Source: Candidatus Woesebacteria bacterium RBG_13_46_13 (GTDB lineage Bacteria > Patescibacteriota > Microgenomatia > UBA8517). From it: 64,000 bases of DNA. The stretch is from positions 14,880 through 78,879 of the forward strand of contig MGFR01000001.1 of NCBI GenBank assembly GCA_001791995.1, in the 5' to 3' direction. This document shows positions 3,452-49,049 of the stretch, piece by piece (the stretch's first letter is position 1; each line of letters opens with the position of its first letter). The notes under the pieces are model-generated. The model did no database searches. It was not told the origin of the DNA and saw only the letters and a program-made list of their open reading frames with translations. The position numbers were made by a program, and so were the translations under genes.

Positions 3452-4549
3452 TCACTTGTAGCCAATCGGCTTTGAAGTTAAGACCAATCCCAGGGATATT
3501 TTTTTGGTTTTTGTATCCAAATCCTGAACATAACAATCGATCTCTTCGCCTTCCGTGAATTTCTTTCCGGGAGGAATCTGGGTGATATGGACCAGCCCTT
3601 CTATCCCCGGCTCAAGTTCGATGAAGACTCCGAAGTCCGAGACCTTCACAACCTTGCCCCTAACTTTGGATTCGGCCTTGTATTTTTCTCCGATCTCTTC
3701 CCAGGGGTCTTTTTGGGCCTGCTTCAAGGACAGGGCGATTCTGCCGTCCTTGATGCCTAAAACTTTAACTTTGACTTTATCCCCCACCGAGACAATATCG
3801 GAAACTTGGATGACCTTGCCCCAGGCAAGCTCCGAAATATGGACCAGGCCTTCAACCAAAGGAGAATCCTTGCCCAAATCCAACTTGACAAAACAGCCGA
3901 AGCCGGCAACCGTGGTCACAACGCCGTCATAAAGGCTGCCTTCTTTAATCTTTTTAATCGCCTCTTTGGCTTTTTTGATATCTTCCGCCTCCGAGACCGC
4001 TTTTTCGGAAAGCACAACTTTGTTTGCCAGTTTATCCACGTCCAATACGACCGCCTTGAAATATTTCCCGACCAGTCCGTTGGTATCCTTATTGGCCTCT
4101 TTACCCAGCTGTGATCCAGGTATGAATCCCAATACTCCTTCGACATCAACCGTTACTCCCGAGGGGTTAACCCCTTTGCCGAATACCGCAACCGGCGTTC
4201 CGTCTCTCTGGGCCTGTTCGAGTCTCTCCCAAGAGGCATCAAAGGCCGCCTGCCTAAGCGACAAAAGAACCGTACCGTCTCGGGTTTCGGGAATTAAGAC
4301 CGTAGCCGTTACCTCATCCCCGATTTTAAGATTTTTAATCAAATCGCGGGCCTCGGTGAAGGCTTTCTCGGCCACTACTCCTTCGGCCTTGCCGCCGACA
4401 TCAAGAATTAAACTTGCGGGGCCTTTGGCCAGAATTTTTCCCCTGACCCTTTGGCCAGCGGAGAATGCTTTGACTTTGTTTTGGGCCATGGCAAGAAGCT
4501 CCGCCATGGTTTTCGGCTCTGAAGAGTTAGTCTTGGTAGTTTTGCTCAC
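3452..4549 (-). CDS. rpsA: 30S ribosomal protein S1, short four-S1-domain form
   Basis: Repeated S1 domains (GxV..G.V....G.FV.L ... GLVHISE). The 365-aa length is typical of CPR S1. It starts about 30 nt downstream of the 5S rRNA with an AAGGA RBS. Confidence 0.9.
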   Translation of the reverse strand: MSKTTKTNSSEPKTMAELLAMAQNKVKAFSAGQRVRGKILAKGPASLILDVGGKAEGVVAEKAFTEARDLIKNLKIGDEVTATVLIPETRDGTVLLSLRQAAFDASWERLEQAQRDGTPVAVFGKGVNPSGVTVDVEGVLGFIPGSQLGKEANKDTNGLVGKYFKAVVLDVDKLANKVVLSEKAVSEAEDIKKAKEAIKKIKEGSLYDGVVTTVAGFGCFVKLDLGKDSPLVEGLVHISELAWGKVIQVSDIVSVGDKVKVKVLGIKDGRIALSLKQAQKDPWEEIGEKYKAESKVRGKVVKVSDFGVFIELEPGIEGLVHITQIPPGKKFTEGEEIDCYVQDLDTKTKKISLGLVLTSKPIGYK

Positions 4550-4579: not shown

Positions 4580-4706
4580 ACTGTTCTGGCGATGAAGTAT
4601 TTTCGCGCCCAGTTGCCCGGGAACTATCGTCCTCGCTGAGGCGTTTGACTTCTGAGTTCGGAATGGGATCAGGTCGTTCCACCTCGCTCCAATCACCAGA
4701 ACAGTG
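4580..4706 (-). rRNA. rrf: 5S rRNA
   Basis: The minus-strand sequence contains the 5S core CCTGATCCCATTCCGAACTCAGAAGTCAAACGCC. The terminal helix CACTGTTCTGGTG pairs with CATCGCCAGAACAGTG. Ends are approximate within 5 nt. Confidence 0.8.
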
Positions 4707-4749
4707 CCCTCAACTAATGCTATTTTGTACTTTTAAATCTGAAGAGAAA

Positions 4750-7668
<2,919 letters not shown>

Positions 7669-7750
7669 TTTCTCTTCAGATTTTAAAGTACAAATCAAAC
7701 GTTAATGAGCAGTGGACAGCCCCGATATCAAATCGGGGCTCACCACTACC

Positions 7751-7827
7751 CACTGGTGGACCCGGGGAGAGTCGAACTCCCTGCCTCATCATTGCAAATG
7801 ATGCGTTCAAACCGGGTAAACTTCGGG
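7751..7827 (-). tRNA. tRNA-Ala (anticodon UGC), CCA encoded
   Basis: Minus strand: GGGCCCGAAGTTTACCCGGTTTGAACGCATCATTTGCAATGATGAGGCAGGGAGTTCGACTCTCCCCGGGTCCACCA. G3-U70 wobble pair in the acceptor stem, anticodon loop TTTGCAA. It lies about 80 nt upstream of the 23S. Confidence 0.9.
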
Positions 7828-7863
7828 CCCTCTGGGAACTTAAATTAGGCTGTTAGGTGCAAC

Positions 7864-7890
7864 TAAAAAACCGGCAATTGAAGCCGGTTT
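7864..7890 (-). terminator. Hairpin plus U-tract (intrinsic-terminator-like) in the leader of the tRNA-Ala/23S unit. It may be read through by rRNA antitermination.
   Basis: Minus strand AACCGGC-TTCAATT-GCCGGTT followed by TTTTTTAG. It is preceded by a boxA-like CACGCTTTTAAATTAAA. Confidence 0.35.
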
Positions 7891-7986
7891 AATTTAAAAG
7901 CGTGTTTGCTCCACGCAGTTTCCCGCGTGTTTATTTTGGAATATAAGAAACGCTTGTCATTAAATTTGCTTCAATTAGCAAGGCAT

Positions 7987-8016
7987 ATTATATAGGAGAA
8001 TTGCAAGAAGCGTCAA
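7987..8016 (-). promoter_or_regulatory. Strong sigma70-like promoter reading leftwards into tRNA-Ala/23S/5S.
   Basis: Minus strand: TTGACG (plus 8011-8016), 16-18 nt spacer, TATATAAT (plus 7987-7994). It lies between the end of the upstream minus-strand CDS (8092) and tRNA-Ala. Confidence 0.5.
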
Positions 8017-8091
8017 GGGGACAAAAGAACAGGGCCAGGAACCAGAAATCGCACGAGGCGAAACTGGGCCTGGCCCAAGCATCGAATCTTC

Positions 8092-8661
8092 TCACCAAGC
8101 CGCACAAACCTGATCCACAGCGCTCTCCCCCAAGACGGCACCTGCCAGTTCATCGACAAAGCAGTAGAGTGTGTCGTCTGGAAGGTGCATCGTCCAGGTT
8201 TCCCACGGCCTTCCGGGGATTTTTTCCCACTCTCTACCTGAAATTCGGTAATAGAGCTCGCCTCCCAAGCACTCGGGTGCGGGGAAATCATCCACAATGC
8301 AGTGGGCAGAATTCAACCGCCTCGTGGCTAGAAAGCGAATGGCCTCCCCCTCATCGGGTGCCTGGGAAGGGATGGCCTGCTGTCCGGCTTGCCGATGGAG
8401 ATCGAGCTCCTCCTGCTCCATGGCCAGAATGCTCTCTATCAGATCGAGCATCGCCGAATCTGAAGCAAACAGATCCGAAATGCTCTGCTCGTCGTTGGCC
8501 AGGCGCTGGTTGTTTAAAGTTATGTACTCACCTATATAGCCTAGCCCCTCGACGGTCAGACCCCTCGAGGCCTCAAGGCCTTCGACCTTGACCCACAAAC
8601 CCACAACGAACAGGGCCAAGACAATAACCGCAACTGCCAAGATCCAGGTGATCGCTTTCAT
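8092..8661 (-). CDS. Hypothetical membrane-anchored protein (N-terminal TM plus an extracytoplasmic domain of about 150 aa). GC is elevated.
   Basis: 189-aa ORF with TM WILAVAVIVLALFVVGLWV. GC is roughly high-50s percent by eye against a mid-40s background. The overlapping plus-strand ORFs 8001..8591 and 8297..8539 look like shadow ORFs. Confidence 0.55.
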   Translation of the reverse strand: MKAITWILAVAVIVLALFVVGLWVKVEGLEASRGLTVEGLGYIGEYITLNNQRLANDEQSISDLFASDSAMLDLIESILAMEQEELDLHRQAGQQAIPSQAPDEGEAIRFLATRRLNSAHCIVDDFPAPECLGGELYYRISGREWEKIPGRPWETWTMHLPDDTLYCFVDELAGAVLGESAVDQVCAAW

Positions 8662-8806
8662 GCTCCCCTCCTTTGGGAATCAGGTTTATGATTTCAGGGT
8701 GCAAGACTCCGCCAAATGCGGATGCCGAAGTATATCCTATAGATGTTATCAAATCAAACAGGGGCAGTAATCAATTCGCTTTCGCGAAAGGCACTTGCCC
8801 CCGAAC

Positions 8807-9340
8807 TTACTCTACCTGTCCATTGAAACGCTCAATGGCTACCAATATCCCCTCGCCGGTCCGGAAGAAGGCTGGAAGGCTCCATTCATCGGGAGAAACC
8901 ACATCTTGGGCACTTCCCGAGTCTGGATCGTACCAGGCGATGAGCAGATCCCCCGCTCCGATATTGGACAGCGTGGTTTCGGCGATAACCGTTCCGCCTT
9001 TCTCGCGCAAGCAGATGCGCAATTCCTCGCCAATAGGAACATTGACGTAGGTGTTGGCGTCGTAAGGCCCCACCCCCGAGTAGTCTTGCATCTCTCCGAT
9101 GGTGAAATACTCTCCCGCCTCTCCCCGGTGTCCGAAAAAGACCAACGCGTTGTTGTCTAACCCCCGGACCCGGGCCTCGAAGATCATCTGCCTAAACCAG
9201 GCAACGGCCTGCTCCCTCTCCAGACCCGAGACCCTGGCATCGACCGATGAAGCCCTCAAGCCCAGGGTGTAGAGATTGATAATCAACAACAGGAGCAACG
9301 AGTGCAGCAATATCAGGCCAACCTTCAACCACTTGTTCAT
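8807..9340 (-). CDS. Hypothetical membrane-anchored protein. GC is elevated.
   Basis: 177-aa ORF with TM LKVGLILLHSLLLLLIINLY and a GGAGGAG RBS 8 nt upstream. It sits upstream of and co-oriented with 8092..8661. Confidence 0.55.
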   Translation of the reverse strand: MNKWLKVGLILLHSLLLLLIINLYTLGLRASSVDARVSGLEREQAVAWFRQMIFEARVRGLDNNALVFFGHRGEAGEYFTIGEMQDYSGVGPYDANTYVNVPIGEELRICLREKGGTVIAETTLSNIGAGDLLIAWYDPDSGSAQDVVSPDEWSLPAFFRTGEGILVAIERFNGQVE

Positions 9341-9434
9341 TCTTCTCCTCCGGTTTTTAAAGGGCGAATTCGGCGTGGCTCAATATACACCCAAATTGTT
9401 TTCGAGGCAAAATTGTGCTAAATTATGCCAATCC

Positions 9435-9508
9435 CGGGCGATTGGTTCAGCGGTAGAACGCTTTCCTGATAAGAAAGAGGTGGATGGTTCGACTCCATCA
9501 TCGCCCAC
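9435..9508 (+). tRNA. tRNA-Ile (anticodon GAU)
   Basis: GGGCGATTGGTTCAGCGGTAGAACGCTTTCCTGATAAGAAAGAGGTGGATGGTTCGACTCCATCATCGCCCACC. Anticodon loop CTGATAA. This is the canonical rRNA-spacer tRNA, but it is on the opposite strand to the rRNA genes. Confidence 0.9.
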
Positions 9509-9571
9509 CCCATATCCCACGGGGAGTGTGCACTACAATTTAGCCAAACTCGCATATATAATAGAAATCGT

Positions 9572-11704
9572 ATGACCAACCTGACCACCCTACTTCTTAG
9601 GCTTCCCCGTAATATCGAAGTCACACCGGAGGCCGCGCAAACCTTCCTCTCCGCCCTGACCCAGATTAACGGAGTTTCCTTTTTTCAAAGAATAACCGGG
9701 ACTTCTTCTCAGCCTCTTTCTCTCGAAATTGCCCTTATCAACCAACAAATCCAGTTTCTGATTACCTGCGATACGGAGCTGGTTCCGTTTGTTACCACCC
9801 AGATTCAATCCAACTACCCACTGGTAATCACCGAGAAAGTCCAGGACCCGATTGCCCAAAGGCAATTGTTTGTTACCAACCTGACTCTCAGAAACGGCAG
9901 CTATTACCCTTTGGCAACCTACGCCAACTTCACCGACATCGACCCTTTGGCCTCCATTCTTTCAGTTTTATCCAAAAGCAACCCCGACGATGTGGCAATA
10001 GTCCAGGTCGCACTGGAATCCACTTCCTCTTCTTGGCAATCGGCAGGAGCCTCTTTTGCCGAAAAAGGCAGGAAAAACGAGGATGGAACATATGCCCCAA
10101 GGCAGGACCAAAACGTAATTAAAGAGAAGATTTCTTACCCAGGCTTCAAGGTCTCCATTAGGGTTGCTGCCAATACGAATGAAACCCGAAAGGAGATGGT
10201 TTCCGCTTTCGGTGTTTTTTCCAGGGCAGACGGGAATTCTTTTAAGGCCAAGGGTTCTCCCCTGTTTAATAAGTCCGCCCTTTACCAAAATCTTTTCTCC
10301 CGAAAGGTTACCGACAATCAAATTTTAAACATCGTCGAGCTGGCAACTATCTGGCACCTTCCTTCCGACAAAATCAAAACACCAACTATAGCTTGGGGCC
10401 AGGCGGTTCTATCCGAACCTCCTGAAAACCTGCCGGTTGCCCTGGATGCCAACGAAGAGGAGAAAAAGCATATCAACTTCTTCGCCAAGACGCTTTACAA
10501 AAACCACGAAACGATTTTCGGAATTAAAGACATCGACAGAAGAAGACACATTTGGACAATCGGAAAAACGGGTACGGGTAAGTCTACCCTAATTGCCAAC
10601 ATGGCCATCGACGATTTGAAAAAGGGCCGGGGTTTGGCAGTCATTGACCCGCACGGAGACCTTTGCGAGATCATCCTGGACTACATTCCCAAAAGCAGGA
10701 TAGCTGATGTGGTCTACTTTAACCCGGCGGATAAGGATTACCCCATTGTCATCAACCCCCTGGAGGTCACCAACAAGGAGGAGGCGGAACTGGTGGTTTC
10801 AGGAATAGTTTCCATTTTTAACAAGATCTTCGGTTTCTCCTGGGGGCCAAGACTCGAGTACATCTTGAGAAACTCTTTAATGACCCTGGCCGAGATGCCC
10901 GATTCCACCTTAAAAGACGTGCCGCTTCTTCTTACCGACAGGGGCTTTAGAACCCGAGCCGTGGAAACCATCAATGATACGGTGCTGAAAGACTACTGGA
11001 CCTACGAATTTAACAAAATGACGGAAAAGCTGCAGCAGGAAGCCATTGCCCCGATCTTAAATAAAGTCGGGCAGTTTGTGACTTCCCCTTTAATCAGGAG
11101 CGTCATCGGCTCCCCCAAAAGCACGATTCAACTCGATGATGTTATGAACGGAGGCAAAATCCTTTTGGCCAACCTTTCCCAGGGACGCTTGGGAGAGGAT
11201 AACGCGGCCCTTTTAGGAGCAATGCTGATTACCAAACTCCAACTCGCCGCCATGCACCGGGTAGATATGCCGGAGGAACAAAGGCGGGATTTCTATCTTT
11301 ACGTCGACGAGTTCCAAAACTTTGCCACCGGGAGCTTTATCAAGATCATGTCCGAAGCCAGAAAGTACCGCTTAAACATTATGCTGGCGAATCAATACAT
11401 GGCCCAAATTCCCGAAGAGGTCCAAAAGGCAATTTTGGGAAATGCCGGGACAATAGTTTCGTTTGCGGTCGGGGCCTCCGACGGAGAAATTCTTTACAAA
11501 GAGTTTGCGGAGGTCTTCTCCCAAAACGATTTGGTCAATCTTTCCAATTACCAGGTCGCCATCAAAATGACCATCGACGGCTTAACTACCCGGCCGTATC
11601 TTGCCCATACCCTACCCCTGCCGATCTCCATCAACCAAAACAGGGAGAAGGTCATCCGTATCTCGCGCGAGCGCTGGAGCAAGAAGCTCGCAGGCAACCT
11701 ATAA
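9572..11704 (+). CDS. VirD4/TraD/TrwB-like (FtsK-HerA superfamily) P-loop ATPase, a type IV coupling-protein-like protein. Copy 1, with no N-terminal TM.
   Basis: Walker A IGKTGTGKST, then DPHGDL, Walker B FYLYVDEFQNF, and ANQ motifs. 710 aa. It aligns along its whole length with the ORF at 46725..49049 but lacks that ORF's roughly 35-aa N-terminal TM segment. Confidence 0.85.
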   Translation: MTNLTTLLLRLPRNIEVTPEAAQTFLSALTQINGVSFFQRITGTSSQPLSLEIALINQQIQFLITCDTELVPFVTTQIQSNYPLVITEKVQDPIAQRQLFVTNLTLRNGSYYPLATYANFTDIDPLASILSVLSKSNPDDVAIVQVALESTSSSWQSAGASFAEKGRKNEDGTYAPRQDQNVIKEKISYPGFKVSIRVAANTNETRKEMVSAFGVFSRADGNSFKAKGSPLFNKSALYQNLFSRKVTDNQILNIVELATIWHLPSDKIKTPTIAWGQAVLSEPPENLPVALDANEEEKKHINFFAKTLYKNHETIFGIKDIDRRRHIWTIGKTGTGKSTLIANMAIDDLKKGRGLAVIDPHGDLCEIILDYIPKSRIADVVYFNPADKDYPIVINPLEVTNKEEAELVVSGIVSIFNKIFGFSWGPRLEYILRNSLMTLAEMPDSTLKDVPLLLTDRGFRTRAVETINDTVLKDYWTYEFNKMTEKLQQEAIAPILNKVGQFVTSPLIRSVIGSPKSTIQLDDVMNGGKILLANLSQGRLGEDNAALLGAMLITKLQLAAMHRVDMPEEQRRDFYLYVDEFQNFATGSFIKIMSEARKYRLNIMLANQYMAQIPEEVQKAILGNAGTIVSFAVGASDGEILYKEFAEVFSQNDLVNLSNYQVAIKMTIDGLTTRPYLAHTLPLPISINQNREKVIRISRERWSKKLAGNL

Positions 11705-11706
11705 TC

Positions 11707-11734
11707 TTGCAATCCTTGCATTCTGTGGTATAAT
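11707..11734 (+). promoter_or_regulatory. Sigma70-like promoter TTGCAA-N16-TATAAT upstream of the GC-rich gene, with a 5' UTR of about 240 nt.
   Basis: TTGCAA at 11707-11712, a 16-nt spacer, and TATAAT at 11729-11734. Confidence 0.5.
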
Positions 11735-11799
11735 ATCGCAGTTCCCAATTGGCCCTTAAGCGGGCTTCAGATATGGGGTTTTTAGGTTCCTAGTACATT

Positions 11800-11815
11800 A
11801 ACAACGGGAGAACAA
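11800..11815. repeat. Left copy of a perfect 16-bp inverted repeat, AACAACGGGAGAACAA.
   Basis: It is the exact reverse complement of 13224-13239. It lies in the 5' UTR of the GC-rich gene. Confidence 0.6.
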
Positions 11816-11977
11816 AAACAAACGCCATCCCTGGCGATAATCAGGGAAACGCACGGTTTGCCTTAGACGGAGAAGTCTCTTGAGACTGCTAGCATGCAAA
11901 TCTCATGAGGAGCAGTCTCCCAAGGAGATCTATCCGCCAAGGGCAATCCTATTTCAAACGCACAACGGAGGTGCACA

Positions 11978-13159
11978 ATGAAAGGTCGCGGAATCAAGCT
12001 TCTGGCTTTGTTCGCGATCCTCGTTTTGGCTCTCGGCGCCACCGGCGCGGCCTTCGCGGCCCCGCCTCCGGCACCGAACGCCACCGGTCAGGACCAGGTC
12101 TGTCCGCACGACACGGATGGTTGGTCGTCCCATCAGGATCCCGGAACCTTCGGGGCTGTTGAGGGCGCTACCAACTACTGCGTCAAGGGCGGCAGTGAGC
12201 AGTCCGAATGCACCGGCTACCTCGAGATCGGCTCCTTCGAGTTTGTCTCGGGGATCCTCGGCGCTGAAGGCGCCTGCGGCCTTTCCCACTGGTCCTACCA
12301 GATGGAAGATGAGCCGGAGGTGGCCAGCGTTAGCGTCGACCCCGGCTCGTGTTACTGGGATGGCGCGTCCTACACGGACGTCGTCGTCGACATGACCGGC
12401 GCCGGCACGCTGACCATCACCGGGCCTGGCGGGCCGTACACCCGAACGGGTGACGACACGCTGACCTTGGGACCCGGCAGCTACAGCTGGACTTTCGTTC
12501 CGGCCGAGGGCTACGAACTTGAAGGACCCGGCTCGGGTTCCTTCGAAGTCGGGACGTGTGAACCCGAAACGGATCCCGCCTCGGTGAGTGTCGAACTCGG
12601 AACCTGCCGCTGGAGCGAGCAGTCAGGGTCTCAGACCCCACTGTCTTTCACCATCAGCGGCGAGGGCACGTTCTCGATCAACGGTTCCGACTACACCTCC
12701 GACGACGAGATCCTGCTCACGCCGGGAACCTACGGCTGGACTTTCGTTCCGGCCGAGGGGTATCACCTGGTTGGGCCGGGCTCCGGGAGCGTCGAAGTGC
12801 TCTCTTGTGAGCCTCCGCCTCCTGGCGGGGCATCGGGTTCGTTTGCGCTGTACTGCGGTGGCGGGATCAACGTCGCCCTGTCCAATGCCCAGCTCACGAT
12901 CGACGACCTGGACCCGATCCTCGAGAACGGGTCGTACGGGCTGAGCCTCGGTGAGCACACCTTCCTCTGGGAGGCTTTGCAGGGGTTTGAATTCCCTGAG
13001 GGCTTCCTGCTGCGAGGCGTCTTCACCATCGTCCCGTGCGGACCGCCCGACGAGCCGCCTACCGGCCCCGAAGGAGCTCTTCCCATCGCGGAAGGACTCG
13101 CTTTCCTGGCCTTCAGCGGCCTTGGAGCGCTCGGCATCCGGCGCATGAAGAAGCACTAG
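11978..13159 (+). CDS. Secreted Cys-rich repeat protein. Strongly GC-rich and compositionally foreign.
   Basis: 393 aa with signal peptide MKGRGIKLLALFAILVLALGATGAAFA. Two copies of a module of about 75 aa (PGSYSWTFVPAEGYELEGPGSGSFEVGTCEP / PGTYGWTFVPAEGYHLVGPGSGSVEVLSCEP). C-terminus is LPIAEGLAFLAFSGLGALGIRRMKKH, a hydrophobic helix plus a basic tail. Codon usage is dominated by GCC/GGC/CCG, with GC roughly 60-65% by eye. RBS is GGAGG. Confidence 0.8.
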   Translation: MKGRGIKLLALFAILVLALGATGAAFAAPPPAPNATGQDQVCPHDTDGWSSHQDPGTFGAVEGATNYCVKGGSEQSECTGYLEIGSFEFVSGILGAEGACGLSHWSYQMEDEPEVASVSVDPGSCYWDGASYTDVVVDMTGAGTLTITGPGGPYTRTGDDTLTLGPGSYSWTFVPAEGYELEGPGSGSFEVGTCEPETDPASVSVELGTCRWSEQSGSQTPLSFTISGEGTFSINGSDYTSDDEILLTPGTYGWTFVPAEGYHLVGPGSGSVEVLSCEPPPPGGASGSFALYCGGGINVALSNAQLTIDDLDPILENGSYGLSLGEHTFLWEALQGFEFPEGFLLRGVFTIVPCGPPDEPPTGPEGALPIAEGLAFLAFSGLGALGIRRMKKH

Positions 13160-13177
13160 CTTCTCTCTGCCGCCCAA

Positions 13178-13220
13178 CTGAGGGGCACCTGCACCTTTTG
13201 GTGCCCCTCAGTTTCAGTTT
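13178..13220 (+). terminator. Rho-independent terminator of the GC-rich gene.
   Basis: Perfect 12-bp stem CTGAGGGGCACC / GGTGCCCCTCAG with a 10-nt loop, followed by TTTCAGTTTC. Confidence 0.7.
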
Positions 13221-13223
13221 CTC

Positions 13224-13239
13224 TTGTTCTCCCGTTGTT
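13224..13239. repeat. Right copy of the 16-bp inverted repeat, TTGTTCTCCCGTTGTT.
   Basis: Reverse complement of 11800-11815. It lies immediately after the terminator. Confidence 0.6.
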
Positions 13240-13262
13240 CTACTTCATCTGCTAAAATAACC

Positions 13263-14267
13263 ATGAAAGAACAAAAACCAATTCATATGTCCGAACAGAA
13301 TAAATCATCCCTCGATTCTTGGCGCAGCAAACCCGCCGAGACCCCCAAACCCAAACTCTCAAGAAGAGGTTTTCTCAAAGGCGCCGTTTTGGGCGGAATC
13401 GGTCTCGGAGGAGCAGTCTATTCGGGTTTGAAGTTTTTGGAAGGATTGGGGCTTGAGCTGCCGCATAACTCCTTCGAACAAGAGCTACAGGCTCTTCCCA
13501 GGGAAGCTACGCCTACCCCCTTTCAGCCACGGGAGACCACTCCCGCGTCTTCGACTCAAACTCCTGAAGCAACGCCTGAACCATCCCCTACTCCGGAGGC
13601 CATCAATTATTGGGCTTTTGCCAAGGCGGATTTTTCCGATTCCGAACACTTAATTGACATGATGATTACCCTGAGGGATTCTTCCAGCCTTTTGGTTCCA
13701 TCCTTCATCCCCATCTCCTGGCATGATGGTCTTCAGCTAAGCGTAGATTTTGATCGGAGAAGAAATACCGGCCTTACCTATCTTGACGAGGACAGACGAA
13801 AAATACTTAATTTACACTCAGGAAGAGAAGGACCTTTGCACTCCGGCTACACCATGTGGGAAACCCAACTGGCTATTGAAACGGATGGACGGGGCAATAG
13901 AATTTATCCTGCCCAAGCCGACGAAAAACTTAGAACCCAGTTTATGGGAGCGGATGTCTTAATAAGACAAACCGAGGCAGGACTTGCCAAGATAGTAGCC
14001 GCGGTCAGGGTCCCCCCCAGCCTGGTCTACGAATCCACCCAGCACGTCTATGAAGAAACAGACCCTTCAGGTAGTGTCACCAACGAAGGGATAATCCCCT
14101 GGCTGGCAGCCAACTTCCCGGACAGCGGATTTGCGGATGTTGTCAACGACCGGGAGGTTTTAATTATTAAATTCTGCGGCAGAATCTTAAGCGGAGAGCG
14201 GGAGGATACCAGAATCGATTCGCCTTATCAGCAGGCACGCTTCTTCTTTGCCCTAAAGCAAAGTTAA
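13263..14267 (+). CDS. Hypothetical exported protein with a twin-arginine (Tat)-type signal, a PT-rich linker, and a C-terminal domain of about 200 aa.
   Basis: The track ORF is 13224..14267; the likely start is the ATG at 13263 (MKEQKP...). Signal SRRGFLKGAVLGGIGLGGAVYS matches S-R-R-x-F-L-K. The linker is rich in P/T/E. Confidence 0.7.
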   Translation: MKEQKPIHMSEQNKSSLDSWRSKPAETPKPKLSRRGFLKGAVLGGIGLGGAVYSGLKFLEGLGLELPHNSFEQELQALPREATPTPFQPRETTPASSTQTPEATPEPSPTPEAINYWAFAKADFSDSEHLIDMMITLRDSSSLLVPSFIPISWHDGLQLSVDFDRRRNTGLTYLDEDRRKILNLHSGREGPLHSGYTMWETQLAIETDGRGNRIYPAQADEKLRTQFMGADVLIRQTEAGLAKIVAAVRVPPSLVYESTQHVYEETDPSGSVTNEGIIPWLAANFPDSGFADVVNDREVLIIKFCGRILSGEREDTRIDSPYQQARFFFALKQS

Positions 14268-14281
14268 CTTATTTTCCCACT

Positions 14282-14312
14282 AAAAAACCACCTCATTAAA
14301 GGGTGGTTTTTT
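14282..14312. terminator. Bidirectional intrinsic terminator. It ends the plus-strand CDS and lies about 100 nt beyond the 16S 3' end on the minus strand.
   Basis: AAAAAACCACC-TCATTAAAG-GGTGGTTTTTT, with A-tract and T-tract on either side. Confidence 0.7.
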
Positions 14313-14411
14313 GTTGTCTTTGACGACCAGGAAATGACTAGGAGGAAGCCCGTTTTCTTAACAGTGAAACGGCGAATTTAAAACTGGGGTGTAAAATACC
14401 ACACTCCTTAG

Positions 14412-15869
14412 AAAGGAGGTGATCCATCCGCACCTTCCAGTACGGATACCTTGTTACGACTTAATCTTCATCGCTGGTGTCACCTTCTGCCCGAACATCG
14501 GACATTCGGGTGCCCCCAACTTTGCTGACTTGACGGGCGGTGTGTACAAGACCTGAGAACGTATTCACCGCGACATAGCTGATTCGCGATTACTACCAAT
14601 TCCGCGTTCATGAGGGCGAGTTGCAGCCCTCAATCCCTACTGAGAAGCCGTTTGATGGGATTAGCTCCGTGTTACCACTTGGCAACCCATTGTCGGCTTC
14701 ATTGTAGCATGTGTGTTGCCCCGGACATAAGGGCCATGCTGACTTGACGTCGTCCCCACTTCCTCCTCGCAAAGCGAGGCTGTACCATATGAATATTCAA
14801 CATATGGAAGGGGTTGCGCTCGTTACCCCACTGAAGGGAACACCCCACGGCACGAGCTGACGACAGCCATGCAACACCTGTGCTATCATCCTTACGGATC
14901 GGTCTCCGTTTCTGGAGACTTAAACGATAGCATGTCAAACCCGGGTAAGGTCCTTCGGTTCGTCTCGAATTAAACCACATGCTCCACTGGTTGTGCAGGT
15001 CCCCGTCAATTCCTTTGAGTTTTAAGCTTGCGCTCGTACTCCCCAGGCGGCTCGCTTAACGCGTTAGCTTACGGAACCCCCGATAAATCGAGGATCCCTA
15101 GCGAGCAAAGTTTACGGCTAGGACTACAGGGGTCTCTAATCCCTTTCGCTCCCCTAGCTGTCGTTCCTCAGCGTCAAAGATTCCCTAGCTACTTGCCTTC
15201 GCCCTTGGTGTTCCTCTCGATATCAACGGATTTCACCCCTACACCGAGAGTTCCAGTAGCCCCGAGAACTTTCAATCTAAGTAGTATTACACCCCTTCCC
15301 AAGGTTAAGCCCTGGTCTTTGAAGTGTAACTTACCTAGTCGCCTACGAAACGCTTTACGCCCAGTAAATCCGGATAACGCTTGCACCCTCTGTATTACCG
15401 CGGCTGCTGGCACAGAGTTAGCAGGTGCTGATTCTCCAAGCTCATTGGTGCTTGGCAAAAGAGGTTTACAACCCGAAGGCCTTCATCCCTCACGCGGCGT
15501 CGCGGCGTCAGACTTTCGTCCATTGCGCACGATTCCCAGTTGCTGCCACCCGTAGGTGTATGGGCCGTGTCTCAGTCCCATTCTGGGGGGTCACGCTCTC
15601 ACGTCCCCTACCCGTCATAGCCTTGGTAGGCCATTACCCTACCAACAAGCTGATGGGAGATAGGCTCATCCCTCGGTGCGCAGTTACGCGCTTTCTCCTT
15701 GCGGACTTATGCGGTATTAGCCCGTCTTTCGACGGGGTATTCCCCGCCAAGGGGTAGATTCCTATCTTATACTCAGCCGTTCGCAACTTGCCTCTTGCGA
15801 GGCCCGTTTTACTTGCATGCTTAAAGCACGCCGCCAGCGTTCATCCTGGACCAGGATCAAATCCTCAAA
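14412..15869 (-). rRNA. rrs: 16S rRNA, about 1.46 kb, no intron apparent
   Basis: Minus-strand 5' end GAGGATTTGATCCTGGTCCAGGATGAACGCTGGCGGCGTGC. The 3' end is ...GTAACAAGGTATCCGTACTGGAAGGTGCGGATGGATCACCTCCTTTC. Confidence 0.95.
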
Positions 15870-16201
15870 TTGTGACGGAAGGAAAACCACACGAACGTGG
15901 CTCTCCCGTCCTATATAAAGCACTCCTAGTCATTTCCTGATTGCCGAATATTAGCATTCGGTCCCGCATGGCTCCCGTTAGAGCCTGGTGGGATCAAGAA
16001 ATATTAATTGCTGTCTTTAATTGTTAAGGTTCAAGCTAAAAGTAACAGGAAACAAGCTATAAGTAGGCAGAAAAGACGAAAAATCAAACTAATGAAAATA
16101 AACTAAGCCTTTCTTTACTTGTAACTTGTTGCCTAATACTTTTAAGGTCCTGAAGTTGTTACCCTAAAGGGAAGTTAACCTCTACTGAAGAAAATTTTGA
16201 C

Positions 16202-45044: not shown

Positions 45045-45911
45045 ATGGCCCAAGAAGCATTAAAAACTCTGCTCCCAAAATTTATCGACAGCCTGAAAGA
45101 AAAAGGCCGCTCTCCTGCTACCGTGCTGGCCTATAGAGCAGACCTTGAACAGCTGATCGTTTTTCTGCATGGAAAGAACAAAGTTATGCCCGAAGGCATT
45201 ACCTCTTCCGACCTTGAGGCATTCCGCGACACCCTTTTGGCGGAAAAATACACACCCAAATCGGTCTCCAGGAAGCTAAATGCCGTCAAGACTTTCTTTA
45301 GATGGCTGATCTCTGAGAATCACCTCACCTCCGACCCTTCCGTTAATGTTGCCCATCCCAAAATCGAATCTTCGCTGCCGAAGTTTCTCTCGCAGCTGGA
45401 GTACCGCGCTCTAAGGGACGTGGTCAGAGCCGACACCAGAATTGCCGCGATCGTGGAATTGATCCTTCAGGCCGGATTGAGAATTTCCGAGGTGGCAAGT
45501 CTGAAAACGGAAAATGTCAAAGCGGATAGCCTTAAAGTTGAGGCCTATGCCACCCAGCCGGAAAGGACTATTCCCTTAAACAGGCCCGCCAAGGATGCGC
45601 TTGCCGGCTATATGTCCGATCGACCCACCAAGATTGCCTCCGTCTATGTTTTCATCAGCAAAAACGGCAAAGCCTTGGCGGTCAGGAATATCCGGGCCGC
45701 AATCGACAGATATATGCAGAGGGCAGAAATTCCTAACTATTCGGTTAACGATTTAAGAACCACTTTTATGGTCGAAAATATTAAATCCGGTGTGGATTTG
45801 GTACTTCTTTCCCAGGTTTCCGGACACAAGCGGCTTTCAACTACGGAGCGCTATTTGGAACTGGCGCAGGTTAAAGAACCCGGCAAGAGACAATCTTTGA
45901 TTGAGCTTTAA
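45045..45911 (+). CDS. Tyrosine site-specific recombinase, XerC/XerD-like
   Basis: N-terminal SAM-like domain. Catalytic domain with R...HxxR...Y (LSQVSGHKRLSTTERYLEL); 288 aa. Confidence 0.85.
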   Translation: MAQEALKTLLPKFIDSLKEKGRSPATVLAYRADLEQLIVFLHGKNKVMPEGITSSDLEAFRDTLLAEKYTPKSVSRKLNAVKTFFRWLISENHLTSDPSVNVAHPKIESSLPKFLSQLEYRALRDVVRADTRIAAIVELILQAGLRISEVASLKTENVKADSLKVEAYATQPERTIPLNRPAKDALAGYMSDRPTKIASVYVFISKNGKALAVRNIRAAIDRYMQRAEIPNYSVNDLRTTFMVENIKSGVDLVLLSQVSGHKRLSTTERYLELAQVKEPGKRQSLIEL

Positions 45912-46615: not shown

Positions 46616-46619
46616 ACTG

Positions 46620-46690
46620 TGGGCTCTGAGAGAGTCGAACTCCCGCGTCGACTTTATAAGAGTCGTGTCCTGCCGTTAAACGAAGAGCCC
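46620..46690 (-). tRNA. tRNA-Ile with the unusual UAU anticodon (the AUA decoder)
   Basis: Minus strand: GGGCTCTTCGTTTAACGGCAGGACACGACTCTTATAAAGTCGACGCGGGAGTTCGACTCTCTCAGAGCCCA. Perfect 7-bp acceptor stem, perfect 5-bp anticodon stem, loop CTTATAA. Confidence 0.8.
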
Positions 46691-46724: not shown

Positions 46725-49049
46725 TTAAAGCTTGGCCCTTCGGGTAATCTCTGCTTCCACCAGACGCATATCGCGACCGTAGCGTAATTTGCTCATTTCT
46801 TTGATTATCTGGGCAACCCTCTCGTTTTCCACTTCCTTGAGTTTCCCCATATCGCGGGTCAAATCCATTGAAAAAGGCGGAACCGGCTCGTTATTGACAG
46901 TAGTTTTGGCGTAGACGTGGTAGCGCTCGATATTTAAGAGGTCATCCTCGGCGAAGGTCGGGGTAAATTCATGAGCCAGGTAGGAAGCGTCGGTTACCCC
47001 TACCCTAAAGGCGATAATCGTTCCGACGTTGCCGAAGACGGCATTTTTAACCTCTTCTTCTACCTGACCAATAAATTGGTTGGCAACAGTGAGGTTAAGC
47101 CGATACTTTCTGGCTTCGGAAAGGATCTGGGCGAAGTCCGGAGTGGCAAAGTTTTGAAACTCGTCAACATAAAGATAGAAGTCCCGCCTTTTATCCTCGG
47201 GCACATCTTGCCTGCTCATGGCCGCCATTAGAATTCTCGGGACCAAAACCAGGCCCAGGAAGTTCGAGTTTTCCTCCCCAATCTCGCCTTTGGCCAGATT
47301 GATAAGGAGGATCTTGCCGGAATCCATCACCTCGCGGAAAGAGAATGAAGACTGGGATTGCCCGATGATGTTTCTGATCATCTTGTTGGTAACAAACCTG
47401 CCGAATTTGGAAACAATGTAGTCCAAGACCTCGGACTTGTGGAAATCCGCCGTCTGGGCGATTTGGTCGGTCCAATAGCGCCGGACAATGGGGTCGGTTA
47501 CTTTTGGCAGGAGTTCGGCCACAAACTGGGAGTCGGTCAGAATCCTCATGACCTCGACAAAAGTTGAGCCCTCGTCGCTCATGGCCGTCAGCATGGCATT
47601 TCTGACCGCGTGTTCAAATCTGGGTCCGACAATGCCGGTCTTATATGGATCGAAGAGCTTGTACATCATGTTAATCACCGAGGTGGCCACAAAGTGTTTC
47701 TCGTCTTCGGTATGGGCCTCAAGCAAATTTAGGCCCATCGGCCGTTCGGTATCCCCGGGGTTAAAGTAGATGACATCCTCGGCGCGCTCGGGCGGGATAA
47801 GCTTTAGAAGGTCCTCGATGGCATCTCCGTGCGGGTCCATAAAACAAAGGCCGCGTCCGGCGCGGATATCCTGCATAATCAAATCCTTCAAAAGTTCGGT
47901 CTTACCCGTCCCGGTTTTACCGATGATATAGACGTGTCTTCTTCTGTCGTCGTCTCCGATATAGACCGGTCTTTTGATTCCCCGGTAACTGCTTAATCCC
48001 AAATAAAGACCTTGCGAGGGAATCTCCGAGGGAGCCGGGGCTGTTTTGGAGTAGAGCCAATAAATATGGGGGGTGGTAACCTGCTTGTTGGGAAAATGAT
48101 AGACGGTGGAAAGTTCCTCGGAATTAAGTATCGATGAATGGCTACCTAAGACATGGAACATCGGCTGATACCTGTAGAGAAAGTCTTCCATAAAAGCACC
48201 CTTGCTTCTTATTTTTCTGCCTTTAAAGCCGTTGGCTTCCGAGCTGAACTGTTCAAAACTGGAGGCGATATTCTCGATATGCATTTTGGCAACCTCGATG
48301 GTTGGGGCCGTGGTTACAATTCTGGTTGAAACCTCGAATCCGGGCTTACCGATTTTTGCCTCAACCGCTTCCAGAGTTTTGGCCGAGGTGGAAAACTTGG
48401 CCTTTTGAGGATCGGATTCCTGTTTTTTGGTGTCTGAAATAAAACTTCGTCCTTCTTTCTGCCAGGAAGAATCGGCGGGAGAAACCAAAATTTGGATTGC
48501 GGCTGCCTCACCCTCCCCCATTTTTGCTAACGCCGATGTCAAAAGAGCCAGAGAATCGGTGGGTAATTCCTTATAAGTCTTGATCGGATAAAAATTGCCC
48601 CGGGAGAGCTGGAAAGATTTATAGGCAACCTTACCCTTTTCCGGAAAGATATTATATTCTTCGACCTCGACAACCTCTGCCTCCGGGTAGGCCCCGTGGA
48701 TTTGTTTTTCCACCAAATCCTTAAGTTTTCTTGATGTCCAAACGTAAAAACGGATGTCTTCTTTCTTGGCTACAATCTCGAACGAAACCGTCGGCTGAAC
48801 CGAGAATTTTTGTTTAAAGCCTCCCTTTTTAATTGAATAAAGCGAGGCGAAGAGCTGTTCCATGGCATCGATCTTTATTTCATTCCCGCGTGGAACCGCC
48901 ACCTGCAGTAAAACGGAGTCCAAAGACCTGCCCTCCCTGCCGCGATTGCGGAATAAGGTAAAGGCGACATAGCCCGTAAAAGCCACCAAAAGGGATCCCA
49001 GTCCCAAAAGGATTAGGGCAGCTACGATCGTATTTAAACTAGGCAGCAC
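46725..49049 (-). CDS. VirD4/TraD/TrwB-like type IV coupling-protein-like ATPase, copy 2, with an N-terminal TM anchor
   Basis: 774 aa. N-terminal TM segment IVAALILLGLGSLLVAFTGYVAFTLF. Walker A IIGKTGTGKTELL, DPHGD, Walker B FYLYVDEFQNF, and ANQ. It is a full-length paralog of 9572..11704. Confidence 0.85.
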   Translation of the reverse strand: MLPSLNTIVAALILLGLGSLLVAFTGYVAFTLFRNRGREGRSLDSVLLQVAVPRGNEIKIDAMEQLFASLYSIKKGGFKQKFSVQPTVSFEIVAKKEDIRFYVWTSRKLKDLVEKQIHGAYPEAEVVEVEEYNIFPEKGKVAYKSFQLSRGNFYPIKTYKELPTDSLALLTSALAKMGEGEAAAIQILVSPADSSWQKEGRSFISDTKKQESDPQKAKFSTSAKTLEAVEAKIGKPGFEVSTRIVTTAPTIEVAKMHIENIASSFEQFSSEANGFKGRKIRSKGAFMEDFLYRYQPMFHVLGSHSSILNSEELSTVYHFPNKQVTTPHIYWLYSKTAPAPSEIPSQGLYLGLSSYRGIKRPVYIGDDDRRRHVYIIGKTGTGKTELLKDLIMQDIRAGRGLCFMDPHGDAIEDLLKLIPPERAEDVIYFNPGDTERPMGLNLLEAHTEDEKHFVATSVINMMYKLFDPYKTGIVGPRFEHAVRNAMLTAMSDEGSTFVEVMRILTDSQFVAELLPKVTDPIVRRYWTDQIAQTADFHKSEVLDYIVSKFGRFVTNKMIRNIIGQSQSSFSFREVMDSGKILLINLAKGEIGEENSNFLGLVLVPRILMAAMSRQDVPEDKRRDFYLYVDEFQNFATPDFAQILSEARKYRLNLTVANQFIGQVEEEVKNAVFGNVGTIIAFRVGVTDASYLAHEFTPTFAEDDLLNIERYHVYAKTTVNNEPVPPFSMDLTRDMGKLKEVENERVAQIIKEMSKLRYGRDMRLVEAEITRRAKL

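Follow-up and report, generated by a model that had tools for sequence, protein, structure and literature searches.

The locus raises two linked questions: why does a single gene of 65% GC lie in DNA of 49% GC, and what is the perfect 16-nt inverted repeat that brackets it? The DNA under study, here called the window, is a stretch of 64,000 nucleotides from Candidatus Woesebacteria bacterium RBG_13_46_13. In a first-pass annotation of its letters, the gene was taken for a transferred one and the repeat for the possible ends of a MITE or cassette-like element. The features of the locus, in window coordinates, are as follows.

4735-4749 / 7670-7684: processing stem of the 23S rRNA
9572-11704, plus strand: VirD4/TraD-like coupling ATPase of 710 aa (Pfam TraG-D_C, TrwB_AAD_bind and DUF87; NCBIfam TraD/VirD4-like)
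11707-11734, plus strand: promoter with -35 TTGCAA, 16-nt spacer and extended -10 TGgTATAAT, kept in 5 loci
11742-11977, plus strand: structured 5' leader of about 235 nt, defined from alignments of related loci
about 11744-11777, plus strand: 5' hairpin of the leader
11800-11815, plus strand: left arm of the repeat, AACAACGGGAGAACAA, within the leader, some 59 nt from the predicted start of transcription
11829-11846, plus strand: leader hairpin P2, with compensatory changes
11882-11919, plus strand: leader hairpin P3, with compensatory changes
11967-11971, plus strand: Shine-Dalgarno (SD) sequence GGAGG
11978-13159, plus strand: GC-rich coding sequence (CDS) of 393 aa, with signal peptide (aa 1-27), N-terminal domain, Ig-like repeats, C-terminal beta domain and sorting signal
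12317-12565 and 12566-12814, plus strand: two Ig-like repeats of about 83 aa (direct-repeat period of 249 nt)
13052-13156, plus strand: C-terminal sorting signal, made of EPPTG, about 10 aa, a hydrophobic helix and RRMKKH
13052-13066, plus strand: EPPTG motif (aa 359-363), with E359, P360, P361, T362 and G363 invariant in the homologue alignment
13176-13213, plus strand: GC-rich, terminator-like 14-bp stem-loop after the stop codon (hp2)
13224-13239, plus strand: right arm, TTGTTCTCCCGTTGTT, the exact reverse complement of the left arm, 10 nt past hp2
13250-13258, plus strand: extended -10 of the downstream gene, TGcTAAAAT, in invariant alignment columns
13287-14267, plus strand: sortase-fold protein of 326 aa, with N-terminal membrane anchor, Pro/Thr linker and catalytic-type domain
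14281-14313: bidirectional terminator, separating the sortase-like gene from the convergent 16S rRNA gene
14328-14344 / 15923-15939: processing stem of the 16S rRNA

We searched for related loci. A scan of genome contigs gave one locus and a metagenome scan added 8. The single locus from the genome contigs is labelled as an uncultured 'Gammaproteobacteria' MAG, yet it has the same cluster beside a 16S gene. A conserved order of genes, namely the VirD4-like ATPase, one to three secreted proteins and a protein of 320-340 aa, all convergent with the 16S rRNA gene, holds for all related contigs, at least eight of them independent; in the window, the minus strand carries the rRNA genes. The VirD4-like ATPase, for which DUF8128 is annotated in orthologues, is the conserved upstream neighbour of the slot that holds the secreted-protein cassettes and is syntenic in L001-L003, L005, L006, L013, L018-L020 and L023. 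The position of the slot is kept even where the flanks of a lineage are down to about 67% identity. Finally, between the cassettes of L024 we observed an 'empty' pair of arms that does not enclose a gene.

The compositional anomaly that had been noted by eye is real and sharply bounded. Windows of 400 nt have a GC content of 0.635-0.652 inside the CDS and of 0.47-0.50 on both sides of it, and the most GC-rich of the 64 1-kb bins (12001-13000; 0.648) falls within it. Its GC1, GC2 and GC3 values are 0.63, 0.54 and 0.78, compared to means of 0.52, 0.39 and 0.53 (GC3 standard deviation 0.07) over 60 open reading frames (ORFs) of the window, of which it is the top GC3 outlier. Amino-acid composition accounts for 51% of the excess, the protein being rich in Gly, Pro, Ser and Thr and poor in Lys, Ile and Asn, and synonymous choice, in the form of an avoidance of A-ending codons, accounts for the other 49%. 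The GC contrast is also found in the five syntenic loci L001/L002, L003, L005 and L006, where the gene has a GC content of 0.51-0.64 and the flanking genes one of 0.39-0.52, as well as for the unrelated cassettes of L010, L013 and L018-L020. Without exception, the secreted-protein genes of the slot lie 10-20 GC points above their neighbours, including those whose sequences are mutually unrelated. All genes in the slot share this high GC as a lasting trait, which is probably kept up by recurrent allelic recombination, by selection acting on the mRNA, or by both. Measured against what is expected of a recently acquired island, the composition is atypical, yet all relatives have the gene, and in each of them it is just as atypical. 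Since these relatives share both the syntenic slot and the GC enrichment over their own flanks, the gene is not a recent import. It is a native surface-protein gene, its product matching a protein of Ca. Woesebacteria RBG_13_46_13 to 100%, and is conserved yet rapidly diversifying in a Woesebacteria lineage. The reading as a transferred gene, taken as a recent arrival in this genome, therefore fails on the first-pass annotation's own terms, its homologues being native to the CPR lineage and similarly GC-enriched.

Rapid diversification is visible in a comparison of the window with L003. Here the flanks are 88-96% identical and the N- and C-terminal parts of the gene only 82-83%, while the middle 594 nt of the gene have been replaced. 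This middle segment is 87% identical to L001, although the flanks of L001 are only 69-81% identical. The breakpoints (12219/12814) lie inside the CDS and away from the repeat arms. As judged from these alignments, the gene is mosaic, and lineages swap its modules with one another. The target protein matches no family in Pfam or NCBIfam. Its repeats, each with two conserved Cys, are modelled as Ig-like beta sandwiches; two Cys-rich repeats had indeed been recognized, but their length, given by the period of 249 nt, is about 83 aa and not about 75 aa. An Ig-like repeat relative with 39% identity occurs in an LPFTG-anchored SpaA-type protein encoded on a contig of 62% GC. High-GC homologues had been predicted; the syntenic homologues are on Woesebacteria-like contigs. 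Because the gene is a mosaic and has the SpaA-type relative on a high-GC contig, it is plausible that modules have been exchanged horizontally, perhaps with an ancient high-GC source. Readings as a retron, a DGR or an integron attC site were rejected: a reverse transcriptase, a template/variable repeat pair and an attC-like structure are all absent, and the 249-nt internal direct repeat is a duplication of a protein domain.

The previously recognized signal peptide is present, and the C-terminus is tripartite (EPPTG-PEGALPIAEG-LAFLAFSGLGALGI-RRMKKH). The proposal that the terminal helix and basic tail form a sorting signal holds, as the EPxTG layout is invariant and a sortase-fold protein is encoded next door; the conserved motif, however, is EPPTG, upstream of the 'LPIAEG' that had been singled out. 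EPxTG, hydrophobic helix and basic tail are found in every homologue and also in unrelated neighbouring cassettes, and the same layout recurs in 17 distinct proteins of the related loci. The signal resembles the LPXTG cell-wall sorting signal: the protein has a signal peptide, its pentapeptide has P, T and G where LPXTG has them, and a hydrophobic helix followed by a basic tail completes the C-terminus. It differs in its pentapeptide, whose first residue is always E and is always preceded by an acidic residue or His. The NCBIfam LPXTG-anchor model did not match the target protein at E-values up to 1, and an LPXTG-like signal occurs nowhere in the 64-kb window.

The protein encoded downstream shares with sortases of classes A-F the eight-stranded beta-barrel fold and the N-terminal membrane anchor, and here, too, the genes of enzyme and substrate are adjacent. 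Its candidate catalytic residues follow the sortase order of His, Cys and Arg along the sequence. In 65 diverse members of its family, His177, Gly179 and Cys297 are invariant and Arg318 and Arg241 are at least 90% conserved. Similarity of its sequence to the Pfam Sortase model or to sortases of solved structure was not detectable: Pfam Sortase (PF04203) did not match any of the 65 family members at E-values up to 0.1, neither Pfam nor NCBIfam matched the downstream protein itself, and the family profile gave no match to PDB sequences. An hhalign comparison with an approximate query sequence of S. aureus SrtA returned a probability of 0.3%. Moreover, its motifs are HSG and (K/x)FCGR rather than the TLxTC context, and its spacings are longer (120 aa from His to Cys and 21 aa from Cys to Arg). 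The family comprises 99 clusters among 1.84 billion proteins and has no Pfam model. A related pairing of enzyme and substrate is found twice in L008. The genomic pairing with EPxTG proteins suggests that the downstream protein is most likely an EPxTG-anchoring sortase.

We then turned to the inverted repeat. The two 16-mers match at 16/16 positions, exactly as had been reported, and further copies with up to 2 mismatches are absent from the 64-kb window. The earlier estimate of about one such match by chance anywhere in the window is right (~1 expected per shuffled window at any distance); for a perfect pair within 3 kb, however, the expectation drops to 0.05 per shuffled window. CDS and hp2 lie between the arms, as had been described, but the first ~58 nt of the leader are outside. 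Arm matching in the related loci was scored by ungapped exact runs, and RNAduplex on whole leaders against whole 3' regions was dropped as uninformative because it allows huge interior loops. With this measure, 13 of 18 gene units have the repeat around them at P ≤ 0.01 compared to shuffled 3' regions, a 14th (L013g3) is borderline with P 0.045, and it is missing from the other 4. The right arm of L013 has only 9 nt and lies before the hairpin. Helix length across the relatives is 11-16 bp, the window having the full 16 bp. Compensatory changes occur at 11 of 19 paired positions, observed values that were reached by none of 500 shuffles, and slid controls pair to 44-58%, compared to 80% for the true register. 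In six divergent units, whose arm sequences differ (examples are ACAACGGGAAAGAAA, ATAGCGAGAGA, AACGGGAGAGTAT and AACGAGAGATCAGG), each arm finds its best match in its cognate partner, by row as well as by column of the comparison. Different cassettes of a single genome, L019, each have their own self-matching arms, which excludes a single shared protein-binding motif. Finally, when whole transcripts are folded, with both arms assumed to be transcribed, the arms pair with a probability of 0.90-0.99 in 8 units. The suspicion that the repeat goes beyond chance is thus borne out by its recurrence and covariation, which mark it as a selected long-range complementarity.

The leader that contains the left arm is itself conserved. 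An AT-rich promoter of native type and a leader of 240 nt had been predicted; we find a strong promoter, with TTGCAA, 16 nt and TATAAT with an upstream TG, followed by the leader of about 235 nt. Its fold has a z-score of -3.8 and P2 and P3 show compensatory changes, in line with the suggested structured leader, but Rfam returned nothing, neither for the whole window at gathering thresholds nor for the leader alone at E-values up to 10. Small ORFs within the leader are not conserved among the loci, and an N-terminal extension called in L001 (P0004) amounts to an upstream in-frame ATG within P3. In the leaders of L005, L015, L019g1 and L018g3, SD-like sequences occur far upstream of the start codon. 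The hairpin after the CDS, described earlier as a terminator, is confirmed as hp2. It covaries, as do the leader hairpins, and has U.G pairs on the sense strand. A simple terminator scan did not call hp2, and its U-tract is poor in many orthologues. In the window and in L001 it is followed by a U-rich stretch and could there end transcription before the right arm. U-tracts also follow the right arm itself in L001, L005, L015, L016, L018g3, L019g1 and L020g2. A split terminator, in which right arm and U-tract would act with the left arm, was not taken up as a general mechanism, as these tracts are missing in the window's own clade.

Other explanations place the function of the repeat in DNA. 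The arms might be recombination sites at which a site-specific recombinase flips leader, CDS and hairpin relative to a fixed promoter, causing phase variation of the surface protein. As in known invertons, short inverted repeats flank a segment that would decide whether a variable surface protein is expressed, and such proteins are what phase variation usually affects. The promoter lies outside the repeat and the whole gene inside, the arms are kept as identical inverted sequences, mostly by pure Watson-Crick pairs with few G.U, and the window encodes an Xer-type tyrosine recombinase (45045-45911). Unlike in invertons, however, it is the gene and not the promoter that the repeat encloses. In all of at least 13 independent assemblies, the gene is oriented as ON with respect to its VirD4-like and sortase-like neighbours, a weak test since it draws on assemblies only, and no inverted allele was seen at the target loci. 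The arms lack the internal dyad symmetry typical of recombinase sites, none of the loci has a recombinase gene linked to the cluster, the nearest Xer-type gene being 31 kb away, and the differing arms of one genome would demand an enzyme of relaxed specificity. Moreover, the arms of L006 and L019g1 stay complementary only thanks to G.U pairs. We therefore regard inversion as unlikely. Still less probable, and largely refuted, is that the gene came in recently from a high-GC donor, aboard a small mobile cassette with the 16-mers as terminal inverted repeats. The atypical GC content and codon usage, the SpaA-type relative on the 62% GC contig, the gene-less arm pair of L024 and the movement of modules between lineages would all fit such a cassette. 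The syntenic position is fixed, however, despite the divergence of the flanks, and every orthologue and the unrelated cassettes share the GC enrichment. Conservation (promoter, 5' hairpin and 'TACCTTAAC') runs through and past the left arm, a target-site duplication is absent (ACATT vs CTACT), and the breakpoints between window and L003 are not at the arms. As to other copies of the 16-mer, arm pairs recur in related units, but the position is syntenic in all loci and the window holds neither a second copy nor a transposase.

The strand on which the complementarity acts was weighed in the same way. It might act in an RNA of the minus strand, or on both strands as an outward, terminator-like insulation from rRNA transcription. 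Minus-strand duplexes, calculated for short windows, are longer and more stable in most units (-33.3 vs -27.9 kcal/mol in the window), and the mismatches that flank the helix on the sense strand comprise 20 A.C, equivalent to G.U on the minus strand, and 5 G.U. In addition, a minus-strand hairpin with T-tract (11836-11823) adjoins the left arm, and the rRNA genes are on that strand. The A.C excess could be an artefact of the A-rich leader facing a CU-rich tail, or could reflect a role of the other strand or of the DNA; a flank bias of this kind is expected anyway from such a composition. Against the minus strand stand the strong bidirectional terminator between the 16S gene and the cluster, the U.G pairs of hp2 on the sense strand, the lack of conservation of the minus-strand hairpin in other loci, and a search for a minus-strand promoter between the arms and the sortase gene, which found none. 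We consider this explanation improbable. The remaining one, that the arms are two operators for a DNA-binding regulator or a nucleoid protein that loops or insulates the unit, appears very unlikely. Nearly all arms share the core A(A/G)CG(G/A)GAGA, and the right arm is at the -35 position of the extended -10 promoter of the downstream gene (10 nt before the TG and 13 nt before the TAAAAT hexamer). Positions outside the core, however, covary between the two arms of a unit and differ among units of the same genome, which a common binding protein would not enforce, and the distance from right arm to next promoter ranges from ~10 to ~100 nt.

Our best reading, to which we give an even chance, is that of a native surface-protein unit with an RNA helix between 5' UTR and 3' flank that serves mRNA processing or stability; strand and mechanism are here what we infer. 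The strong extended -10 promoter would produce an mRNA with the structured leader, and in this sense transcript the two arms would pair and close the whole message into a 'panhandle', most likely setting its processing and stability. The double-stranded ends might shield the mRNA from exonucleases and RNase Y-type cleavage. Alternatively, the helix might be an RNase III-type site at which read-through transcripts are trimmed and parted from the sortase message. The protein would be exported by means of its signal peptide, and the adjoining sortase-fold enzyme would then, most likely, cleave the EPxTG signal and join the protein to the cell wall. Somewhat more tentatively, we propose that for each hypervariable gene of the slot a covarying 'processing stem' in the mRNA, together with an A-poor, GC-rich CDS, yields unusually long-lived or precisely trimmed messages, whose products would be anchored to the wall through EPxTG, as a new signal, by a new sortase-fold family.

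Known RNA systems resemble the proposed mRNA helix in part. In the hbs mRNA of B. subtilis, a 14-bp interaction between 5' and 3' UTR modulates RNase Y cleavage (PMC5737220), and in the icaR mRNA of S. aureus, UCCCCUG in the 3' UTR pairs with the SD sequence and creates an RNase III site (PMC3868564). Common to these and to the target unit is a short complementarity (11-16 bp) that links the 5' leader of a gene with its own 3' flank. The length of the target helix is close to that of hbs, and its C-rich right arm (CUCCC) and SD-like left arm (GGGAG) recall icaR. However, the left arm is ~160 nt upstream of the real SD sequence, which makes direct masking of translation unlikely, and in most loci the 3' arm is past rather than before the terminator-like hairpin. 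Whereas hbs and icaR are single-gene cases, the pairing predicted here covaries across paralogous and orthologous cassettes. The only other perfect long-range inverted repeats in the window (at least 14 nt, within 3 kb) are the processing stems of the 16S and 23S rRNA, RNase III sites that likewise bracket an RNA of 1.4-3 kb. These rRNA stems extend to ~20 and ~40 bp, in contrast to the 16 bp of the target helix, which brackets a protein-coding message on the opposite strand. Long stabilizing 5' leaders are known for abundant S-layer mRNAs, and STAB-SD elements are known in Firmicutes. Here, too, a strong promoter precedes a leader that exceeds 200 nt and has a hairpin at its 5' end, and several leaders of the related loci have SD-like sequences well ahead of the start codon, but the 3' partner arm does not have a counterpart there. 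This likeness concerns features of the leader only and does not identify the target protein as an S-layer or abundant protein.

For annotation, the locus cautions that a sharp local anomaly in GC content and codon usage can be a stable, lineage-wide trait of one class of genes and is not necessarily a sign of recent horizontal transfer. Whether the bias stems from a recombination hot spot with biased gene conversion or from selection on the mRNA bears on how the composition of tiny genomes arises. If the proposed helix is real, it would correspond, at the level of the mRNA, to the stems around rRNAs, in cells that have very few ribosomes. To our knowledge, it is the first case of pairing between the 5' and 3' ends of a bacterial mRNA that is backed by covariation in a gene family, and this support opens the idea to simple reporter tests. 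The current view of CPR bacteria is that they live attached to other cells, with surface proteins as the likely points of contact, and we know of almost none of these proteins that has been characterised. With its variable Ig-like proteins, a new sortase-type signal and a divergent sortase-like enzyme adjoining, the locus is a candidate attachment system, whose place next to the rRNA genes and a VirD4-like ATPase is conserved.

The GC-rich gene occupies a slot between a gene for a VirD4-like ATPase and one for a sortase-like protein, inside a split rRNA operon (4584-15872). The 16S and 23S-5S genes, both on the minus strand, are about 6.7 kb apart, and the gap holds a plus-strand cluster of VirD4-like, surface-protein and sortase-like genes together with tRNA-Ile(GAU).

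4751-7666, minus strand: 23S rRNA
9572-11704, upstream of the target gene: VirD4/TraD-like ATPase
11707-11734: promoter, TTGCAA-16-TGgTATAAT
11978-13159, plus strand: target CDS, 393 aa, 100% identical to hypothetical protein A2Y68_01300 of Candidatus Woesebacteria bacterium RBG_13_46_13
13287-14267: downstream 326-aa protein with an N-terminal anchor, without family match
14281-14313: bidirectional terminator between the 326-aa protein gene and the convergent 16S gene
14412-15872, minus strand: 16S rRNA
Minus strand, as the rRNA genes: tRNA-Ala
Plus strand, as the surface-protein cluster: tRNA-Ile(GAU)

The order of a VirD4-like gene, one or more secreted proteins and a 320-340 aa protein recurs on at least 10 independent metagenomic or MAG contigs and extends to lineages in which DNA identity of the VirD4-like gene is down to about 67%. 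Wherever the contig is long enough, the convergent 16S gene comes next (related loci L001, L003, L005, L006, L010, L013, L017 and L018). The first-pass annotation's view of the promoter as native holds up, and the promoter is conserved. The split operon resembles an inverted spacer segment, an arrangement found in these same divergent relatives. One of them, L017 (CAYMZX010000012.1), is labelled 'uncultured Gammaproteobacteria'; its sortase-like gene adjoins the 16S gene, as in L013, and the contig probably comes from a CPR genome and was mis-binned or mislabelled.

A 714-nt segment (8030-8743; region GC 0.55-0.57) is missing from L003, a relative with 95-97% identity. Within it lies ORF189 (8092-8661, minus strand), a 189-aa membrane-anchored protein without family match, which is flanked by an imperfect 17-nt inverted repeat (8103-8119 and 8674-8690, 82% complementary), and beside it ORF177 (8807-9340, minus strand) has the second highest GC3 in the window (0.71). 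LAGLIDADG endonuclease ORFs sit in insertions of about 730-860 nt within the 23S and 16S genes of relatives (L003 1660-2409; L001 2368-3099, 10680-11502 and 11775-12635), and the window lacks them. Farther away, at 46619-46690 (minus strand), ARAGORN predicts a tRNA-Ile whose anticodon is UAU; reading AUA with this anticodon is uncommon in bacteria.

The first-pass annotation had described a GC-rich CDS in lower-GC surroundings, and the composition bears this out. In 400-nt windows the CDS reaches a GC of 0.635-0.652, compared to 0.47-0.50 around it, the bin 12001-13000 ranks highest among the 64 one-kb bins, and the gene is the top GC3 outlier of the window's 60 ORFs. The rise affects all three codon positions (GC1 0.63, GC2 0.54, GC3 0.78; window means 0.52, 0.39 and 0.53). 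At the window's synonymous usage the amino acids of the target would give a GC of 0.569 against a background of 0.486, so that 51% of the excess is due to amino-acid composition (Gly 15.8%, Pro 8.1%, Lys 1.3%) and 49% to codon choice, with no use at all of the A-ending GTA, ACA, CTA and TTA. Comparing ORF composition across the window, we found no GC enrichment in its other signal-peptide proteins. Orthologues in syntenic loci have a GC of 0.51-0.64 compared to 0.39-0.52 in both flanking genes, and a GC3 of 0.40-0.78 compared to 0.27-0.62. Moreover, in L010, L013, L018, L019 and L020 the slot carries between one and three genes for secreted proteins, with N-terminal domains unlike that of the target, and these genes lie 10-20 GC points above their flanks. 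With the enrichment conserved across divergent syntenic lineages, the transfer proposed in the first-pass annotation does not hold up as a recent event, and the idea of a gene foreign to this genome finds no support. As one old transfer would have ameliorated across such lineages, the bias needs an ongoing cause; it would fit recombination-associated GC bias as well as selection on the mRNA. Most likely, it is a class property of the slot cassettes.

Exchange between lineages is shown for modules of the gene. Between the window and L003, its closest relative, identity is 88-96% in the flanks and 82-83% in the N- and C-terminal parts of the target, but in the middle 594 nt are swapped for an unrelated 312 nt. 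With L001, this middle segment shares 87% identity and the flanks share 69-81%. With L010 and L013 the window has no more in common than the leader and the final ~110 nt of the CDS. Finally, a relative of the Ig-like repeat, at 39% identity (E 2e-23), occurs in an LPFTG-anchored protein with a SpaA domain, encoded next to clpX and valS fragments on a contig of 62% GC. An old high-GC origin of one module is therefore possible.

The perfect 16-nt inverted repeat around the gene was confirmed; 0.05 such pairs within 3 kb are expected per shuffled window. Its arms keep their positions among relatives, the left one in the leader past the 5' hairpin and the right one 4-25 nt beyond the post-stop hairpin.

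11800-11815: left arm
11829-11846: leader hairpin P2
11882-11919: leader hairpin P3
13176-13213: post-stop hairpin hp2, 14 bp, GC-rich
13224-13239: right arm

Table. Left and right arms of the window and of related cassettes.
Window: left AACAACGGGAGAACAA; right, exact reverse complement
L005: left ACAACGGGAAAGAAA; right TTTCTTTCCCGTTGT
L015: left AACAACGGGAGAAAA; right, exact reverse complement
L018, third gene: left AACGGGAGAGTAT; right, exact reverse complement
L020, second gene: left AACGAGAGATCAGG; right, exact reverse complement
L019, first gene: left ATAGCGAGAGA; right, exact reverse complement
L019, second gene: left ACAACGGGAGA; right, exact reverse complement

In L019, two genes of one genome have different arms, each with an exact partner of its own, which rules out a simple protein-binding motif common to the arms. 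When all arms are compared with one another, the cognate pair tops both row and column in six divergent units, and 13 of 18 units reach P <= 0.01 against shuffled 3' regions, a fourteenth (third gene of L013) being borderline at 0.045. In an ungapped alignment of 12 units, both partners have changed at 11 of 19 paired positions, and 80% of cells are paired; none of 500 shuffles reaches these values, and sliding the partner brings pairing down to 44-58%. Chance is therefore excluded, and the repeat is non-random, as had been suspected. The property preserved in these alignments is complementarity, or identity in inverted orientation. Between two cassettes of L024 (~425-515) we also noticed an 'empty' arm pair, whose members AACGAGAGACAA and TTGTTCTCTCGTT stand about 75 nt from each other with nothing but a small hairpin and a U-tract between them; it resembles a deleted gene whose paired ends were kept.

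The first-pass annotation suggested that the arms are mobile-element ends. Conservation that runs across the arm, fixed synteny, recombination breakpoints within the CDS and the lack of a target duplication contradict such a cassette with the repeat at its ends. That the arms are the ends of a DNA inversion switch is possible, but no inverted allele occurs among at least 13 assemblies, no recombinase is linked to the cluster and the arms lack dyad symmetry. In the most likely reading, the left arm in the leader would pair with the right arm 3' of hp2 as a helix in the sense-strand mRNA. Judged by its strong conserved promoter, this strand is certainly transcribed. P2, P3 and hp2 all covary, the U.G pairs in hp2 are valid on the sense strand only, and G.U pairs lengthen the arm helix in L006 and the first gene of L019. 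When whole transcripts (0.8-1.7 kb) are folded, the arm-pairing probability is 0.90-0.99 in eight units. In many loci hp2 has no U-tract, so that transcription probably runs on through the arm, and in L013 the candidate arm precedes a canonical terminator. Against the sense helix, transcription in the window could end ahead of the right arm, at the U-rich tail that follows hp2. Also against it are the flank mismatches, mainly A.C on the sense strand (20, with 5 G.U), and calculated antisense duplexes that are stronger than the sense ones; both would arise without selection where an A-rich leader faces a CU-rich tail.

A further point for the sense-strand helix is that, at 14 nt or more and within 3 kb, the window has no perfect long-range repeats besides this one and the rRNA processing stems.

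4735-4749 and 7670-7684: 23S processing stem, perfect 15-nt inverted repeat, extendable to ~40 bp
14328-14344 and 15923-15939: 16S processing stem, perfect 17-nt inverted repeat, extendable to ~20 bp

A second VirD4/TrwB-like coupling-protein paralogue (46725-49049, minus strand) shares identical 16-17-nt stretches with the gene at 9572-11704, which explains several long-distance inverted 16-mers. Precedents for the mRNA pairing are hbs, where a 14-bp interaction modulates RNase Y cleavage (PMC5737220), and icaR, where pairing of the 3'UTR with the SD creates an RNase III site (PMC3868564). Several leaders also carry an SD-like AAGGAGG directly after the left arm, far upstream of the start codon (L005 ~7907-7920, L015 ~140-150, L019 ~478-490, L018 ~4130-4150, L022 ~1385-1395), reminiscent of STAB-SD mRNA stabilisers.

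The C-terminal sorting signal suspected earlier is present in all target homologues and in all other slot cassettes, as [E/D/H/K]-E-P-[P/A/K]-T-G followed ~10 residues later by a hydrophobic helix and then a basic tail. The layout is that of sortase signals, except that E replaces L, and the curated LPXTG model gives no match to it. We aligned 14 close members of the downstream-protein family, which forms 99 clusters among 1.84 billion representatives. RKILNLHSGR, KFCGR and ARFF are conserved. Across 65 diverse members, His177, Gly179 and Cys297 never vary, and at least 90% keep Arg318. None of the sequence methods links the family to sortases. In L008, two substrate/enzyme pairs have a different signal, EPDV[PA]AGG, again followed by a helix and basic tail, and their 270-aa proteins match the downstream-family profile with an hhalign probability of 96.7%. 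These consecutive pairs of a secreted and a 270-aa sortase-like protein (L008 1657-7291) lie in a context without a VirD4-like gene. We infer that the downstream protein is quite likely a divergent sortase-like transpeptidase with the slot proteins as substrates. Elsewhere in the window, two tandem genes (57680-59917 and 59960-62200) encode class A penicillin-binding proteins (transglycosylase and transpeptidase).

UTR-UTR pairing, sortase/substrate pairs and variable adhesins are already known in kind; new are the conserved placement of the cluster inside a split rRNA operon, the covariation of arm pairing across a whole gene family, the EPxTG signal and the unannotated sortase-fold family. 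Comparative sequence evidence suggests that the target is most likely a native, hypervariable surface protein with sortase-type anchoring, whose mRNA ends would be joined by a co-evolving helix.
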